A stretch of 64,000 nt of DNA from Escherichia phage vB_EcoM_G2285: the sequence record MK327933.1, one strand, 5' to 3'. The notes under the pieces were generated by a model that worked only from the letters and a program-made list of their open reading frames with translations, was not told the origin of the DNA and did no database searches. Made by a program: the position numbers and the translations under genes. Below, in pieces: positions 24,287 through 41,205 of this stretch (position 1 is the stretch's first letter; each line of letters starts with the position of its first letter).

Positions 24287-25276
24287 CTATTTATAGTAAG
24301 AATTATGATTTTCGAGATAGACTTGCTCAAGGAAGTCGTCCCAGAAACTCATATCTACTTTTTGTTGCATACCGTTCTTAGCGGCTTGTTCTGACGCATG
24401 TTCAACTTGGTCAACGATATCTTCTAGGAATTCTTGTACAGTTTTAAATGTATGTTTACCAAGCTTAACATCGAGAATAAATGGAGCATCCTGAAGTGGG
24501 TAAACCAGGTCGCCGGTTTTGTAAATTTCCAATAGTTGAAGTCCACCACGACATGCATGACTCAATGCTTTCCAGTCAATACCTTCGTTGGCTTCGGCCT
24601 TACGAGCACGTTCACCATAGTTCTCTTCCAGTTTAACCAGGATGGCATTGAACTCTTTATTGGTTAACGTGTCTTGGAATTTACGGTCTAACAGATTATA
24701 GAATGTTTGCTTACCTGTTTTCTCGTTTTCGGTTTCAACCCACGAAGCAAATTCACCTACAGGCAGAACATTCTTCATATGTGATAAACGAATTACTGCA
24801 CCATTATCAAAGTATTGTCCCCATTCATTAGAACGTTTAAGGGCTTGACGAAGAACAGCCAGTCGAGAACCCTTGACACCGTATTTAGAAGCTTGCTTAC
24901 GGACATACCCTAAATAAGATTTCATGTTAGTGGTATAGAAACGAGACCTGTTATCTTGAATATACTTCCATACATCAGGCAAATCAGATTTAACTACTAG
25001 ACTTGGTGGAGTGTGAAGCATATCTAATGCGACGGTTTCACCATCCGCAGCTAGTTTAAAGAAATATTTGAGACTATACAACTCATGGTCTACGTCGTCT
25101 TTTGTGTTCTTAGAAGATGTGTTATTCGTGTTCTTGCTCATGTGTTCTTTAACGTTACCGGTCAAGATATCACGAGCATGAGGGACATAAATTTCTTTAA
25201 AATCGACATCAGATTCAGGAGTAGACGTTCCATAAAGGTGGCTACCAAAGTAGCTTTTCATAATTGTTTTCATCAT
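24287..25276 (-). CDS. Pol-beta-superfamily nucleotidyltransferase-fold protein
   Basis: 329 aa; N-terminal GSHLYGTSTPESDVDF matches the GS-x(9-13)-DxD nucleotidyltransferase signature; further acidic residues DDVDHE about 40 aa downstream. Confidence 0.5.
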   Translation of the reverse strand: MMKTIMKSYFGSHLYGTSTPESDVDFKEIYVPHARDILTGNVKEHMSKNTNNTSSKNTKDDVDHELYSLKYFFKLAADGETVALDMLHTPPSLVVKSDLPDVWKYIQDNRSRFYTTNMKSYLGYVRKQASKYGVKGSRLAVLRQALKRSNEWGQYFDNGAVIRLSHMKNVLPVGEFASWVETENEKTGKQTFYNLLDRKFQDTLTNKEFNAILVKLEENYGERARKAEANEGIDWKALSHACRGGLQLLEIYKTGDLVYPLQDAPFILDVKLGKHTFKTVQEFLEDIVDQVEHASEQAAKNGMQQKVDMSFWDDFLEQVYLENHNSYYK

Positions 25277-26586: not shown

Positions 26587-26623
26587 TTGTTTTGGTAGGA
26601 CTACTATAACATAATCCTACCAA
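26587..26623 (-). promoter_or_regulatory. Promoter/stem-loop cassette (PeSL-like), copy of the ATAGGACTACTATAACATAGTCCTAT family
   Basis: Minus strand GTTTAC (plus 26618-26623) followed by palindrome GGTAGGACTACTATAACATAATCCTACC. Confidence 0.5.
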
Positions 26624-33793: not shown

Positions 33794-34075
33794 CTATTTT
33801 TCTGAAGCGCCTGAAATATATTTTTCAAGACGTTGTTTCATTAGCGAGCCGTTCTTAGCGATTTCTTCCGGTTTATCGCACATACGCAACAAGGCTTCAA
33901 GCTTAGCGATATTGCTGGTACGTTCAAATTTGCGAGTATCTATCTTACTAGCAAGTTCAGAAATACGTGCTAATAGACTTTCGGCTTCAACCAAAGCTGC
34001 ACCTAGCTTAGTTGCAAATGTGTCAGTAGCTTCGTTAAGAATAGATTCTGATAAAAATTCACTATATGTTTTCAT
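33794..34075 (-). CDS. Internal-protein-like small protein with capsid-targeting N-terminus
   Basis: ORF 33794-34090; from internal Met [16 protein letters not shown] it is 93 aa; same MKTYxEF leader as ipII/ipIII. Confidence 0.55.
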
Positions 34076-34560
34076 ATATACGCTTTCCAAGTTCCTGTTT
34101 TAAATGTTGAGATTACGCGTTTCGCGCGATTAGGTGTCTGACGATACCATTTAGATTGGGCTAGATTTACTGCCGCTTCATCCCAACGTTTCTGTTGAAG
34201 AATACGAAGAGAATTAGTAAAACCGGCGACGCCTGCTACACCCATTTGGAAGACCATATTGACCAATGCACATCGACGAACTGCATCTAAAGAATCGTAT
34301 ACCGGTTTAAGTTTAGCATTACCCAAGATTCCGCGAACGGCTTTATCAACGTCTTCATTAAATAGCTTTTCAGCCTCATCAAGGGTAATTGTACCGTTGC
34401 ATTTACGTCCGATCATTCTGTCAAGTTCAGCTTTAGCTACGGCTAAAGACGGGTTCTTTGTTACTAAATGGCCTATGCCAATCGTCCAAAAGCCTTCAGT
34501 GTCTTTGTATAAAGTCGGTCTAAGACCTTCGTCATTACGAAGCATTTCAAATATATTCAT
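34072..34560 (-). CDS. e: Lysozyme e (endolysin, T4 lysozyme family)
   Basis: ORF 34072-34572; from [32 protein letters not shown] with catalytic Glu/Asp/Thr context; C-terminus ...[15 protein letters not shown]. Confidence 0.9.
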
Positions 34561-34594
34561 AATACCTCCCACGTTTATAGGAGGTATTTATTAC

Positions 34595-35053: not shown

Positions 35054-35294
35054 CTCGGTTCCATGATTTGGCCATTAATTCGGACATAAATTCTTCAATG
35101 CGCGTTTCTTTAGATGGACTTTCACTATCAGATATTTGGACCATATAATCAGAAATAGGTCGGAACATATCCAAGTCGCTTTCTAAATCTTCTTTGATTT
35201 TCTCTTCTGACGTTCCTGTATCATAGGAATACAGATAAGAATCACATGATTCTGATTTAATGTAAATTGCTATACTCATCTCAAATTCCTGCAT
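35043..35294 (-). CDS. Hypothetical small acidic protein
   Basis: 83 aa ORF. Confidence 0.45.
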   Translation of the reverse strand: MQEFEMSIAIYIKSESCDSYLYSYDTGTSEEKIKEDLESDLDMFRPISDYMVQISDSESPSKETRIEEFMSELMAKSWNRDDE

Positions 35295-35512
35295 TCGGTA
35301 ATAAAACGTTCAACTTCATTATTTTTGGCCTTTATCTTGTCTTTACGTTCCTGTAAACTACTTTTAACAAGATTAATAATGATGCCTACAGTACCTCCAC
35401 CAATTATACCGCCAATTATACTTACGATAGTAGATGCTAATAAGATAGCAATAATATCTAGTACGGCAAAGGCACTTACTTTAGTACTAAAAAAACCATA
35501 CCGATGGTACAA
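35276..35512 (-). CDS. Small membrane protein with C-terminal ERFITECR motif
   Basis: 78 aa; TM segment ILLASTIVSIIGGIIGGGTVGIIINL; C-terminus ...NNEVERFITECRNLR. Confidence 0.5.
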   Translation of the reverse strand: MYHRYGFFSTKVSAFAVLDIIAILLASTIVSIIGGIIGGGTVGIIINLVKSSLQERKDKIKAKNNEVERFITECRNLR

Positions 35513-35675
35513 ATATAATCCATCCTGTTATCCATTGGCACTTATTGAAAAACTTTTCAAGCTCAGCTTGAGTTGTTCGTATTACTTCATCGATAGGTTG
35601 ATATCCATTAATGTATCTGTTCACGATAATACCTGCTGGCTGGTCGATTTTAAATTCTTGGCAAATATGTTTCAC
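35487..35675 (-). CDS. Hypothetical small protein
   Basis: 62 aa ORF overlapping the previous one by 26 nt. Confidence 0.3.
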   Translation of the reverse strand: MKHICQEFKIDQPAGIIVNRYINGYQPIDEVIRTTQAELEKFFNKCQWITGWIIFVPSVWFF

Positions 35676-35746
35676 TAAGTATGATGGACATCCTGTCCAA
35701 TCTACTGAATAGTATGAAATACCTTCGTTGCCATCAACTATTCATA

Positions 35747-36052
35747 TTATTTTCCTCGACATTCTTTAATGAAATTTTCTAGATTGGTAGATTCAATAGC
35801 TTTTTTACGAGCTTCTGCGTGTTCTTCTTCGGTCAATTTACGTTTATAATTGACCCAGACATTATGGTCGAAACTAGTCGTGGCATATAATAACAAAGCT
35901 CCGACGAATAATAAAAACGGTGATAAGAATACAAAACCAGGAACACCATCCATATCGTAAGCCTTTTGTAATACTGCAACAGAAAGGGCTGCGTAAAAAA
36001 GTGATGCAAATATTGTTAAAAGACCAATTCGGTTGGTTTCGCCTAATTTCAT
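35747..36052 (-). CDS. Small membrane protein with C-terminal ENFIKECR motif
   Basis: 101 aa; two hydrophobic helices; C-terminus ...STNLENFIKECRGK. Confidence 0.55.
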   Translation of the reverse strand: MKLGETNRIGLLTIFASLFYAALSVAVLQKAYDMDGVPGFVFLSPFLLFVGALLLYATTSFDHNVWVNYKRKLTEEEHAEARKKAIESTNLENFIKECRGK

Positions 36053-36071
36053 AATATTCTCCTCATGTTTA

Positions 36072-36110
36072 ATAGGACTACTATAACATAGTCCTATAAT
36101 TGTGTAAACA
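36072..36110 (-). promoter_or_regulatory. Promoter/stem-loop cassette (PeSL-like)
   Basis: Palindrome ATAGGACTACTATAACATAGTCCTAT (36072-36097) plus minus-strand GTTTAC (36105-36110). Confidence 0.5.
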
Positions 36111-36121
36111 GTTTTGTGAAG

Positions 36122-37078
36122 TTATTTGAAAGGTTTTACCATATGGAAATTTTGTTTGAAACGTTTGACGTAATCATCATGTCCTAAACTTTGGTACATA
36201 CTTACTACTTTGCGGTAGTTTTCCCAGGCATACTCACGAAACCAGCCAGAGGTGATGCTTGTACAGACTTTTTCTAATGCCATCATGAAACTGGCTTCAG
36301 GGTTAATTTTAAAGTCATTAGGAATTTGAGAACGTTCTAATGCTAGTACACATGATTCTTCGTATACACCGGCCAATTTGACCATTTCCGGTAATGATTC
36401 GAACTTCTCGCGTGAGGTCATGACTTCAGAACCGTCTTTCATATAAAATGTATACGCTGGACGGTCTGTTAGTGCAATGGCTTCGTGAATAGTATCATGG
36501 TCATATGTATAGATGTCATCTTTAAAGAACGCACTTTTAGAAGTGTCAAGAACCGGGTGAGCATAGTTCAAGGTTTCTTTCTGGCGTTTCAGCATAATTT
36601 CAGTAAGTTCATCGTTCAGTGTAACACCTTTACCACGAAGATACTGAATATGGTTCATAGTCTTTAAAAAGAATGGATTATTTTTCTTGAAACGATGAGA
36701 CATCTTAATTGCAAGGCACATCTCAGGAGTTGCCCAGTAAAACCCGTTCAAACGGTCTTTAGTCAAATTTTTCTTGGCGTATTTTAAAAGGTCATAAGAA
36801 GACGTGAAATCTTCAGGAGTGAGTTCACCGACTAATTCACGGACATTAGTAATTGCCGGAACAATATATGCTTCAAAATGAGTTTCGCGTCCGTTATGGA
36901 AGCATTTGAAAACTTGGACATCAGGGTTATCTTGGTGAACATATACACCCATCATTTGATTTTTGAATGCATTCCAAGAACATTGGTCCGCAATAAAGTC
37001 CCAATCGCTATTTTTGATAGCGCTAGAATCAATAAGACCGTGATAGTGAAGTGCACGAGAACCAATAACTAACATCAT
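36122..37078 (-). CDS. Hypothetical 318 aa protein with a weak nucleotidyltransferase-like N-terminal motif
   Basis: N-terminus VIGSRALHYHGLIDSSAIKNSDWDF loosely resembles GS...DxD; function unknown. Confidence 0.45.
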   Translation of the reverse strand: MMLVIGSRALHYHGLIDSSAIKNSDWDFIADQCSWNAFKNQMMGVYVHQDNPDVQVFKCFHNGRETHFEAYIVPAITNVRELVGELTPEDFTSSYDLLKYAKKNLTKDRLNGFYWATPEMCLAIKMSHRFKKNNPFFLKTMNHIQYLRGKGVTLNDELTEIMLKRQKETLNYAHPVLDTSKSAFFKDDIYTYDHDTIHEAIALTDRPAYTFYMKDGSEVMTSREKFESLPEMVKLAGVYEESCVLALERSQIPNDFKINPEASFMMALEKVCTSITSGWFREYAWENYRKVVSMYQSLGHDDYVKRFKQNFHMVKPFK

Positions 37079-37106
37079 AATATTTTCCTCGGATTAATTC
37101 ATTAAC

Positions 37107-37358
37107 TTAAATTTCACGACATGCGATATTATATTCATCCCAGAGGTCATCATATGAAGCCTCTACCAAAGGAACGATTGTACCGTTTATGTCTTCATTA
37201 TAAGGGCAAATTGTACAGTGCGCATCTTCGAATCGGATGCCTTTGTGTTCAGATTTTTTATAACGCATATCGAATATCTTTGCAAACTTTTCACGAGTAA
37301 TGGTTTTACTAACCAATTTGGTTCCGATACTTTCGTAATAAATCATTGTGGACTCCAT
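37107..37358 (-). CDS. Hypothetical small protein
   Basis: 83 aa ORF with CxxC pair (CTICPYN). Confidence 0.45.
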   Translation of the reverse strand: MESTMIYYESIGTKLVSKTITREKFAKIFDMRYKKSEHKGIRFEDAHCTICPYNEDINGTIVPLVEASYDDLWDEYNIACREI

Positions 37359-37366
37359 TTAATTTG

Positions 37367-37404
37367 ATAGGACTACTATAACATAGCCCTATCTTGTTGT
37401 AAAC
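37367..37404 (-). promoter_or_regulatory. Promoter/stem-loop cassette (PeSL-like)
   Basis: Palindrome ATAGGACTACTATAACATAGCCCTAT (37367-37392) plus minus-strand GTTTAC (37399-37404). Confidence 0.5.
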
Positions 37405-37408
37405 TGTT

Positions 37409-37606
37409 TTAGCAAGAATAACTAGATGATACCCAGCCTTGAACAGTGATACTATTGTGGGATAATGAGATCGCGTCCTGGAGATTCAGACCTGCGTTAT
37501 CTTCAATCCATAATGTAACTTCTTCGCGTTCTTCTGTTGCAATTTGGAACAGGTTTTCCAGAGCAGCTACTGCCGTACGTACAGCACAATCTAATTCACG
37601 AGACAT
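37409..37606 (-). CDS. Small protein ending in GWVSSSYSC
   Basis: 65 aa ORF; shares the C-terminal WVSSS-x-x-C tail with the adjacent ORF. Confidence 0.45.
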   Translation of the reverse strand: MSRELDCAVRTAVAALENLFQIATEEREEVTLWIEDNAGLNLQDAISLSHNSITVQGWVSSSYSC

Positions 37607-37615
37607 ATTGTTTCC

Positions 37616-37921
37616 TTAGCACAACGCAGAAGACGAAACCCAAGCACCTTCAGTAATAACGTAACCATTACCTTCACGCTTAACATCGCCACCATTATTT
37701 TCAATTTCATCTTTCATCCACTGGTATACGATTTCACCCTTAGGATAATAAGTACGACCGCTACCATAATCACCTACAGAAAATGATACGGCATATTGGT
37801 CTGCGATCTTTGTTGCTTCTTCTTCGATACGTTCAGCTTGATTCAGAAGTTTATAAATTGCATCTGAAGCGGATTTGGCATCATTAAACTCTGGTACTTT
37901 AATTTCAATAATCTTACTCAT
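37616..37921 (-). CDS. Small protein ending in AWVSSSALC
   Basis: 101 aa ORF; shares the C-terminal WVSSS-x-x-C tail with the adjacent ORF. Confidence 0.5.
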   Translation of the reverse strand: MSKIIEIKVPEFNDAKSASDAIYKLLNQAERIEEEATKIADQYAVSFSVGDYGSGRTYYPKGEIVYQWMKDEIENNGGDVKREGNGYVITEGAWVSSSALC

Positions 37922-38277
37922 TTTCTACATTCCTTAATAAAGTTTTCGATTGTTTCATTTTCACGTCTAGCTAAGAGTTCATTATAACTAATCATTTGAG
38001 AAGCGTAAACCTTTTTATTTTTCTTGTTATGGTTTATAAAATCGTAGTAAAAATAGACTACAGTACAAAATGATGCGATGGATGCAAAGGCTTGGGTATA
38101 CCGTAAGTCCTGCCATTGGTCTGTGAATCCACCAGTGTTCCCTATAAATCCTAACACAACGCCATCAATAAGAAATCCAACTAATCCAAAGGCAAATCCC
38201 ATGCCAATACTCATAATAAAAATTAGAATGTTCTCACCAAGAGAAGGCCATATGGTTAAGAGTTGAGGCTTTTGCAT
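37918..38277 (-). CDS. Small membrane protein with C-terminal ENFIKECR motif
   Basis: 119 aa; hydrophobic N-terminal half; C-terminus ...RENETIENFIKECRK. Confidence 0.55.
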   Translation of the reverse strand: MQKPQLLTIWPSLGENILIFIMSIGMGFAFGLVGFLIDGVVLGFIGNTGGFTDQWQDLRYTQAFASIASFCTVVYFYYDFINHNKKNKKVYASQMISYNELLARRENETIENFIKECRK

Positions 38278-38651
38278 CTTATTTCCTTAACGAATTCCAT
38301 AGCTTCTTCATATTCATACTTTTTAACAGCCTCGTCATATTGAGCTCTTGCTTTTGCACATTGAATTTTCCATTCGCGTACTCGAGCTCTATAATGACGT
38401 CCTTGGTACCAATATCCCACCCAGTTAATAGGCATTAATAAAAATGGCACAATAAACGACCCGGCTATAATAAGTAAAAACACTGCATCAGACGATATAA
38501 CTTCACTAGAATCTAAAACAGCTCCTATAATCATAAAGATTAAAAATGCTAAAGCTAAAATAGGGCCAAATAGTACTTCATTTGGGATTAATTTACGCTT
38601 GTATTCATACGCCCAGGGCTTAATTGGCATGTACAGGGTTGGCTTTGACAT
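38256..38651 (-). CDS. Small membrane protein with degenerate C-terminal EFVKEIRC motif
   Basis: ORF 38256-38681, start probably MSKPTLY at 38651; two TM helices; C-terminus ...EEAMEFVKEIRCKSLNS. Confidence 0.5.
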   Translation of the reverse strand: MSKPTLYMPIKPWAYEYKRKLIPNEVLFGPILALAFLIFMIIGAVLDSSEVISSDAVFLLIIAGSFIVPFLLMPINWVGYWYQGRHYRARVREWKIQCAKARAQYDEAVKKYEYEEAMEFVKEIRCKSLNS

Positions 38652-39243
38652 ATTCTCTACATTCCATAATAAATTGCTCAAGGATTAAATTGTTAGTGAA
38701 ATTAGGACTAACAACCATGGTTTCATAAAGCGCATCAATAGCACTTAAAGCATCAACTCTTTTAAGCAAAGGCTTGCCTTCATACATAGTTTCAGAATCG
38801 ATGATTAACGTAAAGTAATATTTTTTATTATCGACTAGAACTTCTGTATCGATATAAAACATATTAGACCTCAGAAGCTTATCTCTAAAACCATAATAAT
38901 CTTCAGAGCGTTCGCTGATATATTCCCATTCAGTGTTTAAACAACAAACAGACCATGTAGGAGCAACGAAATCAGTGAATCTAATATCATGGTCTGCAAC
39001 TAGTTTAGCAATAGCTCCGATATCATGAATCATAATACCTGGGGCTAATAAAGATTTTCTGCTATGGCCGGCCGTTTTCTCGGTGGTCTCATAAGAAGAC
39101 GACCAGTACCATTTACGTCCAGTTGCAACATATCGTAATGAATCAACTAAAGACGTAGGTGGATTTACCTTATCTCGGAACTCTTCGAACATTGAGTCAA
39201 TATCATTATTTTGGTTTCGCATGTTAACTCCTTTATTATCCAA
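38620..39243 (-). CDS. Hypothetical protein with C-terminal EQFIMECRE motif
   Basis: 207 aa ORF; C-terminal ...LILEQFIMECREYVKANPVHAN. Confidence 0.5.
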   Translation of the reverse strand: MDNKGVNMRNQNNDIDSMFEEFRDKVNPPTSLVDSLRYVATGRKWYWSSSYETTEKTAGHSRKSLLAPGIMIHDIGAIAKLVADHDIRFTDFVAPTWSVCCLNTEWEYISERSEDYYGFRDKLLRSNMFYIDTEVLVDNKKYYFTLIIDSETMYEGKPLLKRVDALSAIDALYETMVVSPNFTNNLILEQFIMECREYVKANPVHAN

Positions 39244-41052: not shown

Positions 41053-41124
41053 CTGGCGCACTTGGACTCGAACCAAGATAAAGGAGTTAACAGCTCCCCG
41101 TAATAACCTTTATACGATGCACCA
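41053..41124 (-). tRNA. tRNA-Asn (anticodon GUU), CCA not encoded
   Basis: Hand-folded cloverleaf: acceptor TGGTGCA/TGCGCCA (one G-U), D-loop AAAGGTTA, anticodon stem GGGAG/CTCCT with loop CTGTTAA, T-arm CTTGG-TTCGAGT-CCAAG. Confidence 0.6.
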
Positions 41125-41130
41125 TTTGTT

Positions 41131-41205
41131 TGGTGACCCTGGCTGGTTTCGATCCAGCTACCTATCAGTTATGAGCTGACAGCTCTCCCATTGAGCTACA
41201 GGGCC
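41131..41205 (-). tRNA. tRNA with CAU anticodon (Met, or Ile if C34 is modified), CCA encoded
   Basis: Hand-folded cloverleaf: acceptor GGCCCTG/CAGGGTC, D-stem GCTC/GAGC, anticodon stem GTCAG/CTGAT with loop CTCATAA, T-arm GCTGG-ATCGAAA-CCAGC, 3' ACCA. Confidence 0.6.

Follow-up and report, generated by a model that had tools for sequence, protein, structure and literature searches.

In the 64,000-nucleotide stretch of Escherichia phage vB_EcoM_G2285 analysed here (MK327933.1; hereafter the window), a 318-aa minus-strand gene at 36122..37078 and two small genes just upstream of it represent two phage gene families that form a tightly coupled module. The first family is, by its conserved signature and modelled fold, a genuine nucleotidyltransferase (NTase)-fold enzyme, and the second consists of small acidic proteins that end in a conserved tag with a terminal Cys. 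The link between the two is new, and together the enzyme and the tagged proteins point to an undescribed phage protein-modification module.

Organisation of the locus

The source phage is T4-like, of the genus Mosigvirus, with Escherichia phage vB_EcoM_G2469 as the best match (99.7% protein identity). The enzyme gene is an ATG-to-stop ORF, at the position that the initial annotation had given without a strand, and its product begins MMLVIGSRALHYHGLIDSSAIKNSDWDF. As had been claimed, no ORF between the T4-type lysozyme gene (34072..34572, minus strand) and the two tRNA genes (41053..41205, minus strand) is larger. tRNA genes also lie near the enzyme gene in Gordonia phage Aphelion.

Directly upstream, and co-transcribed with the enzyme gene, is an 83-aa ORF with three Cys residues (37107..37358, minus strand; PHROG 3723); the 28 nt gap between the two genes contains a GAGGA ribosome-binding site. 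This ORF, present at 17/32 enterobacterial T-even-type loci and absent from all other lineages, is lineage-specific and lies outside the module core. The gene had been credited with its own promoter cassette. An early-promoter-like cassette (37367..37403, minus strand) is indeed present, with TTTACA-17-TATAGT and an upstream TG at 37403..37375; the gene directly behind it, however, is the 83-aa ORF, with the enzyme gene following. A second, near-identical cassette (36072..36108, minus strand; site 36108..36080) sits directly 3' of the enzyme gene and serves the ORF at 35747..36052. The 20-mer CTATGTTATAGTAGTCCTAT of the cassette occurs six times in the window, against an expectation of zero.

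What had been overlooked by treating the gene as a stand-alone accessory ORF is a pair of small upstream ORFs with a common C-terminal motif. The first (37616..37921, minus strand) encodes a 101-aa protein of pI 4.6 (PHROG 899) with an internal GDYGSGRTYYP block, and ends AWVSSSALC (tag codons 37619-37642, minus strand); its start codon overlaps the stop codon of an upstream e.3-like ORF. The second (37409..37606, minus strand) encodes a 65-aa protein of pI 4.2 (PHROG 4882) and ends GWVSSSYSC (tag codons 37412-37435, minus strand). The tag motif is found exactly twice in the six frames of the 64-kb window, both times upstream of the enzyme, and never in 50 shuffled versions.

A family of small acidic proteins with a C-terminal Cys tag

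The tagged proteins are one divergent family. They have in common an N-terminal amphipathic helix ending in [AI]AD[EK]HxLxFxL, a YGMGG[TY]Y or GDYGSGRTYYP block followed by an acidic linker, and the terminus G-[GA]-W-x-x-S-S-x-x-C. The G-[GA] pair is frequent in front of the Trp (44/74 at position -9), and the universal core of the tag is S(-4)-S(-3)-x-x-C(0), with the Cys at the very end. The strict form, W-x-S-S-[ST]-x-x-C-stop, was found in 144 of 16,372 ORFs, of which 140 end exactly at the Cys. Loci that seemed to have no motif carry variants of it: GEWRPSSQNC, ITWYNSSESC, GGWVASSQTC and DSWSSSNC. One subtype accounts for at least 789 clusters in the protein collection, all without a name, and each of the 120 members listed of that subtype ends exactly at the tag Cys.

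Folded and 52-172 aa long, the partners are strongly acidic (median pI 4.4), with 89% below pI 5 compared with 30% of background ORFs. They fall in the unannotated PHROGs 899, 4882 and 23943; a Pfam search assigned them to no family, HEPN included, and a fold search of the PDB returned no neighbour. In an AF2 model of a tagged protein the W-V-S of the tag forms part of the last beta-strand of the folded domain, so the tag Ser is possibly less accessible than it would be in a free tail.

The enzyme and the tagged proteins are linked in both directions

We collected all ORFs within 5 kb of the enzyme gene at 91 loci; grouped at 62% identity of the enzyme, these loci represent 27 lineages. Clustering of these neighbours gave one dominant family, the small same-strand proteins just upstream, present at 70/91 loci and often in two or more copies. 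Within 3 kb upstream and on the strand of the enzyme gene, 213 of 1,437 ORFs carried a relaxed form of the tag, W-x(1-3)-S-[STAQ]-x(0-2)-C-stop, compared with 15 of 14,935 elsewhere (odds ratio 173). By this measure, tagged genes stand upstream of the enzyme at 82/91 loci and in 23/27 lineages, with 1-5 copies per locus. Two further lineages have a tag ORF abutting the enzyme gene and one has a longer variant, which brings the count effectively to 26/27. The loci are phylogenetically non-independent, which bears on the linkage statistics, but 26/27 lineage groups still agree.

The reverse search, in viral contigs and with only the internal motifs of the partner family, yielded 52 loci. In 48/52 the enzyme gene follows on the same strand, at a median distance of 705 nt. 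Three of the four exceptions are contigs that end within 3.5 kb, and a single locus has room for the enzyme gene and lacks it. No other conserved neighbour was found in more than 6/27 lineages, and those that recur (NadV-like, helicase, RNR) are ordinary phage genes. Linkage to tRNA genes was considered as a family feature and rejected: outside the enterobacterial T-even synteny, a tRNA gene lies within 10 kb at only 4 of about 50 loci.

T2 and T6 have the same lysozyme-to-tRNA synteny without the block. Neither the enzyme nor a tagged ORF was found in six frames of the complete T6 genome, and neither enzyme nor tag in the T2 region syntenic with the window. Relative to these T-even type phages the whole block of the window, from the two tagged genes through the 83-aa ORF to the enzyme gene, is thus an insertion.

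The enzyme belongs to a phage-confined family

It had been stated that no family could be assigned to the 318-aa protein; this is outdated. The protein matches Pfam DUF7277 over residues 2-101 (E 1.4e-27) and DUF7275 over residues 120-305 (E 7e-79), both above the gathering cut-off, as well as PHROG 2141 over residues 1-318 (E 6e-150). All three are families of unknown function. A search of a collection of 5.8 billion proteins returned 2,211 matches, nearly all with both domains, and an exhaustive profile search gave 1,601 clusters at 50% identity; the best 150 of these are all about 300 aa long, with no fusions. Phage genome records with the enzyme number 733 and cover many host genera, with phages of E. 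coli, Klebsiella, Acinetobacter, Aeromonas, Pseudomonas, Vibrio and actinobacteria among them, as well as jumbo phages. Among 185,579 species representatives of cellular genomes there were only five matches, all on MAG contigs, so a bacterial origin or role is unsupported and the family is essentially confined to phages.

Other searches with the enzyme gave little. NCBIfam returned a sub-threshold HisJ match only, and PADLOC and anti-defence families returned no match. A PDB sequence search, with both the single sequence and a profile, returned PsaB only, which we rejected as a chance match. Full-text literature searches for the DUFs, the PHROGs, the RB69 ORF names and the tag motif returned no paper that names any of them.

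The N-terminal domain has a Pol-beta nucleotidyltransferase fold

The weak NTase-like character noted earlier at the N-terminus proved to be well founded. Residues 2-101 (DUF7277; 36776..37075, minus strand) have the alpha/beta core fold of Pol-beta-type NTases together with an invariant catalytic signature. In an alignment of 47 diverse members G6, S7, D25, D27 and E69 are invariant. The hG[GS] element is VIGS, with G6-S7 (37058-37063, minus strand), and the following [DE]h[DE]h element is SDWDF, with D25-x-D27 (36998-37006, minus strand); the third catalytic carboxylate is E69 (36872-36874, minus strand), within a predicted strand at 64-73. Structural comparison of the AF2 model (pLDDT 93.4) placed MenT1 first (10.1, 145 residues aligned), followed by ANT(2'') (8.6), TglT/MenT3 (8.5), TM1012 (7.7), MenT4 (7.7), JHP933-like (7.5) and LnuA (7.2), and Foldseek agrees weakly with this list. 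These matches place the N-terminal half in the structural branch that holds AbiEii/MenT and small-molecule NTases.

Within this branch the enzyme differs from the MenT/AbiEii proteins in several respects. The DUF1814 model (PF08843) matched none of the 47 members at E<=5, nor the window protein at E<=1. MenT1 carries a motif III Lys, K137, and a DUF1814-specific motif IV Asp, D152 (PMC10435456). K125 of the enzyme, invariant and located in a helix of the second lobe, could correspond to MenT motif III; among the 47 members no invariant Asp follows within about 25 residues, and K139 and T140 are conserved instead. The enzyme has a canonical D-x-D where MenT has [ST]-x-D, it has an extra, highly conserved region of ~170 residues without structural relative, and, in contrast to MenT/AbiEii, it is not basic (family median pI 6.0). 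MenT/AbiEii proteins are bacterial, with a single MenA/AbiEi antitoxin gene upstream, whereas the enzyme is found only in phages, with 1-5 partners that have a strict C-terminal motif. The ANT(2'')/LnuA/JHP933-type enzymes, for their part, are 160-225 aa long, act on antibiotics without dedicated protein partners and have no sequence similarity to the enzyme.

A likeness had also been drawn between the N-terminus and the 'GS...SDxDF' pattern of the protein encoded at 24287..25276 (minus strand). That protein, which starts ...FGSHLYGTSTPESDVDF, belongs by its Pfam and PHROG matches to the RlaP family of NTases (PF10127). At the level of the motif the likeness is real, since both are Pol-beta-superfamily NTases of T4-like phages with an hG[GS]...DxD signature. 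It does not extend to pairwise similarity: the best BLASTP E value is 5.7, so what the two proteins have in common is the superfamily signature only. The PF10127 model does not match the enzyme, and both Pfam and PHROG place the two in separate families. Whereas RlaP has ties to RNA ligases and RNA repair (PMC7824862), the enzyme is linked to tagged small proteins.

The C-terminal domain is an orphan and partly tracks the tagged partners

The C-terminal half of the enzyme (~170 residues) is an orphan domain, with no structural or sequence relative. The all-helical DUF7275 domain (residues 120-305; 36164..36721, minus strand) exceeds the N-terminal domain in conservation among the 47 members, with blocks such as GVYEExCVLALER and KVCTSITSGxFR. 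Its universal core comprises K125, H128, K139, H194-D195-H198, E240-E241 and E248-R249. A second set of positions, the block 270-281 (KVCTSITSGWFR) together with R129, T140, R165, Y172, H174 and Y212, is found only in enzymes that have tagged partners. A zinc or disulfide site formed by C243 and C272 was considered and dropped, as C243 varies among tag-associated enzymes.

The counterpart is a group of short enzymes of about 250 aa in Gordonia, Streptomyces, Rhodococcus and KVP40-like Vibrio phages, which have no tagged ORFs within 4 kb. They keep GS, DxD and the universal core (K125, H128, K139, H194-D195-H198, E240-E241, E248-R249), and lack R129, T140, R165, Y172, H174, Y212, C272, T276/S277 and R281. 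One surface block of the enzyme thus co-varies with the presence of tagged partners. Since the tag-less enzymes appear to keep the whole catalytic core, the ancestral acceptor was probably something other than the tagged proteins. Their neighbours include an RNA ligase and tRNA genes, a hint of RNA as acceptor.

A proposed mechanism: nucleotidylylation of the tag

Several divergent paralogues with one strict terminal motif, beside one conserved enzyme, led us to read the partners as substrates. As far as we know, all enzymes of this structural branch whose activity has been characterised place NMP on a hydroxyl group, which makes the conserved Ser pair the natural acceptor. On the strength of this chemistry, and of a gene arrangement like that of a modification system, we propose tentatively, and at somewhat less than an even chance, that the enzyme attaches a nucleotidyl group to a Ser hydroxyl within the tag of the small proteins. 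We infer that the tagged proteins would be the substrates and Ser the acceptor, and the same holds for the effect of the modification given below.

In this scheme the module would have two parts, be specific to phages and owe its catalysis to the enzyme. The Pol-beta-fold domain, presumed active, would bind NTP-Mg2+ through G6-S7, D25, D27 and E69, while the helical C-terminal domain would dock the C-termini of the small acidic proteins whose genes lie just upstream (in the window, those of 37616-37921 and 37409-37606). The NMP group would then be moved onto a Ser hydroxyl of the W-x-x-S-S-x-x-Cys-COOH motif, for which the Trp and the free Cys terminus may be the recognition elements. The modification might turn several fast-evolving early proteins, probably host-directed effectors, into an active or protected form.

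Pol-beta NTases that nucleotidylylate partner proteins are known: GlnE, GlnD and MntA-HepT. Each of these Pol-beta-fold enzymes has a specific partner that it AMPylates or UMPylates on a hydroxyl side chain, the partner gene being adjacent in the case of MntA-HepT, and they are the functional model that we propose for the enzyme. They differ from it in the acceptor, which is Tyr rather than the proposed Ser, and in the partner, which is a HEPN RNase or PII/GS and not a small acidic protein family. The module is thereby distinct from the type VII system MntA-HepT, where a HEPN partner is modified on Tyr, as the tagged proteins have no HEPN domain. A further precedent is PsmN, an NTase homologue whose target is the (phospho)Ser at the C-terminus of a lasso peptide (PMC9266682). 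Nucleotidylylation of Ser does not by itself explain why the Cys is terminal.

Alternative readings

In the main rival reading, which we take seriously while thinking it rather doubtful, the tagged proteins would instead be regulatory or specificity subunits. The acceptor would then be a host protein or an RNA 3' end, in the latter case of tRNA, by analogy with MenT. They could act as antitoxin-like plugs, with the W-SS-C end in the active site, or as adaptors that steer the NTase to host targets. As the tag is within a folded domain, it could form a docking surface with the YGMGG block, and strongly acidic bodies (pI 4.4) would fit nucleic-acid mimicry. The tag-less enzymes, with their retained catalytic core and adjoining RNA ligase or tRNA genes, agree with such a role, and so do the MenT-MenA pairs, the closest structural relatives with small partners upstream, which use those partners as inhibitors (PMC10435456). 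On the other hand, between one and five divergent paralogues per locus would be unusual for an inhibitor, and the non-basic enzyme (pI 6.0) is atypical of a tRNA binder. The family has no overall linkage to tRNA genes (the 4/~50 loci above) and no DUF1814 match in its 47 members, and the strict need for a terminal Cys is left unexplained here as well.

The terminal Cys would be accounted for by a different chemistry, which we consider unlikely. Here Ser would be activated by NMP and eliminated to dehydroalanine, and the Cys thiol would then close a C-terminal thioether ring, or the dehydroalanine would stay as an electrophilic warhead. Such a pathway would amount to a protein-level counterpart of lanthipeptide synthesis, minimal in its parts and borne by phages, with NMP as the leaving group. 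In lanthionine and AviCys rings, as in nisin and epidermin, the Ser-to-Cys spacing is i+3/i+4. The tag, S(-4)-S(-3)-x-x-C(0) with the Cys always terminal, has the same spacing, and these two features keep this reading open. The G-[GA] often found before the Trp fits it too, the invariant His/Lys/Arg/Glu set of the orphan C-terminal domain could provide a site for elimination or cyclisation, and multiple precursors upstream of one enzyme are the gene logic of RiPP systems.

The resemblance to RiPP systems, in several precursor-like genes upstream of one modifying enzyme and in the Ser...Cys spacing typical of thioether rings, has limits. We detected no sequence or fold similarity to LanB, LanC, LanM, LanKC or HopA1-type lyases, and, as C243 is not conserved among the tag-associated enzymes, there is no LanC-like Cys-Cys-His zinc site. 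A literature search found no precedent for a Ser dehydration in which AMP or another NMP is the leaving group. Nor are the partners leader-core peptides, since they are folded; what is conserved in them is the extreme C-terminus, and the module has no protease or exporter gene and is found in virulent phages. A RiPP system with an NTase does exist in pseudomycoidin (PsmK/PsmN), where the NTase homologue PsmN is required for modifying the C-terminal phospho-Ser (PMC9266682).

It is quite improbable that the enzyme modifies a small molecule (antibiotic-like, a nucleotide or a signal; compare ANT(2'') and LnuA) or makes a nucleotide product, the tagged proteins being co-located through shared regulation or an indirect link such as binding of the product. 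The two-way linkage (about 98% in one direction and 26/27 lineages in the other) is tighter than an indirect link would give, a block of the enzyme co-varies with the presence of the partner, and no PADLOC or anti-defence family matches. We give very little credence to the C-terminal domain being a degenerate HD-type phosphohydrolase, and the protein a miniature CCA-adding or tRNA-end-healing enzyme directed against tRNA-3'-end toxins. The enzyme has no H...HD...D metal site in an HD fold. By the tests run, the enzyme belongs to DUF7277/DUF7275, and not to DUF1814, RlaP, the HD hydrolases or the lanthipeptide synthetases.

Implications for phage biology

The enzyme stands for a large family, essentially confined to phages, in which a recognisable nucleotidyltransferase is joined to a very conserved domain without structural or sequence relatives. 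One enzyme with several tagged proteins is the pattern that marks a dedicated modification system, and no such system is on record for these genes. If the thioether chemistry were true, hundreds of virulent phages, T4 relatives included, would practise a lanthipeptide-like protein chemistry with an NMP leaving group. A set of fast-evolving early effectors would then carry a C-terminal ring, a reactive dehydroalanine or a nucleotide handle. A function for the module would cover several 'hypothetical' early genes per phage genome, and might reveal new protein chemistry, a new route of host takeover or a means of counter-defence.

Genetic organisation around the module

Within the window, the genes for the 318-aa NTase-fold enzyme and for the small acidic tagged proteins encoded upstream of it, which end in W-x-x-S-S-x-x-Cys, are separated by an 83-aa ORF (37107-37358, minus strand; PHROG 3723). 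Its product contains three Cys, including those in the sequence HCTICP, and the ORF was found only in enterobacterial T-even-type loci (17 of 32), being present in none of the other lineages. The window has six copies of an early-promoter-like cassette, GTTTACA ... CTATGTTATAGTAGTCCTAT (at 26595, 36072, 37367, 42184, 42512 and 42887, all on the minus strand), where none would be expected by chance; five of the copies are exact over 20 nt. Two of these copies bracket the unit formed by the 83-aa ORF and the enzyme, an arrangement that might help recombination to add or remove this unit as a module.

The module is flanked by five small minus-strand ORFs (35276-35512, 35747-36052, 37918-38277, 38256-38681 and 38620-39243, all within 35276-39243), mostly of membrane-protein type and paralogues of the T4 e.3/e.4/e.5-like kind. 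A second C-terminal motif, F[IV]xE[CI]R with 0-14 residues after it, is common to all five, whereas shuffled sequences would be expected to yield 0.13 ORFs with this ending. The same ending is also seen in related loci, such as L032.

Variation between close relatives

The number of tagged genes varies even among near-identical phages, since Escherichia phage vB_EcoM_G2469, the nearest relative, carries a third (L001:5191-5463; 90 aa, ending ...EDGGWVASSHTC) between the counterparts of the window's two, at a site equivalent to 37606-37616. Genes for tRNA-Asn(GTT) and tRNA-Met(CAT) lie at 41053-41205 in the window; the sequence record of near-identical G2469 has tRNA-Met(CAT) and tRNA-Arg(TCT) annotated at the matching position (L001:562-813). 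At least two W..SS motifs are present in 28 of the 206 unique tagged proteins, and in one subclass (L005:3371-3631, L043:9730-9957, L037:9709-9954 and L077:9432-9677) an additional internal copy, fused to a YGEG block as W-x-S-S-S-C-Y-G-E-G, precedes the terminal tag.

Exceptions to the pairing and possible links to RNA

A single locus, L111 on a 305-kb contig (IMGVR_UViG_3300033498_000048), has a tagged-family gene and 6 kb of downstream sequence with no enzyme gene. In one homologue, P0054, encoded on a 3-kb metagenomic contig, DUF7275 is joined to a PF06693 N-terminus in place of the NTase domain; this begins with a signal-peptide or lipoprotein-like stretch, and P0054 may be a chimeric assembly.

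The protein at 24287-25276 (minus strand), to which the initial annotation had loosely likened the start of the enzyme, belongs among the Pol-beta nucleotidyltransferases to the RlaP family (PF10127, E 6e-13; PHROG 388, 'nucleotidyltransferase'), which has been linked to RNA ligases and RNA-end repair (PMC7824862). Tagged partners are absent from the subfamily of short enzymes (~250 aa), found in Gordonia phage Aphelion (L004), Streptomyces phage TunaTartare (L096), Rhodococcus phage NiceHouse (L097) and Vibrio phage VH1_2019 (L098). Because the actinophage short enzymes either directly follow an RNA ligase gene or have tRNA genes within about 1-2 kb, these neighbours hint that the ancestral role was RNA-related.
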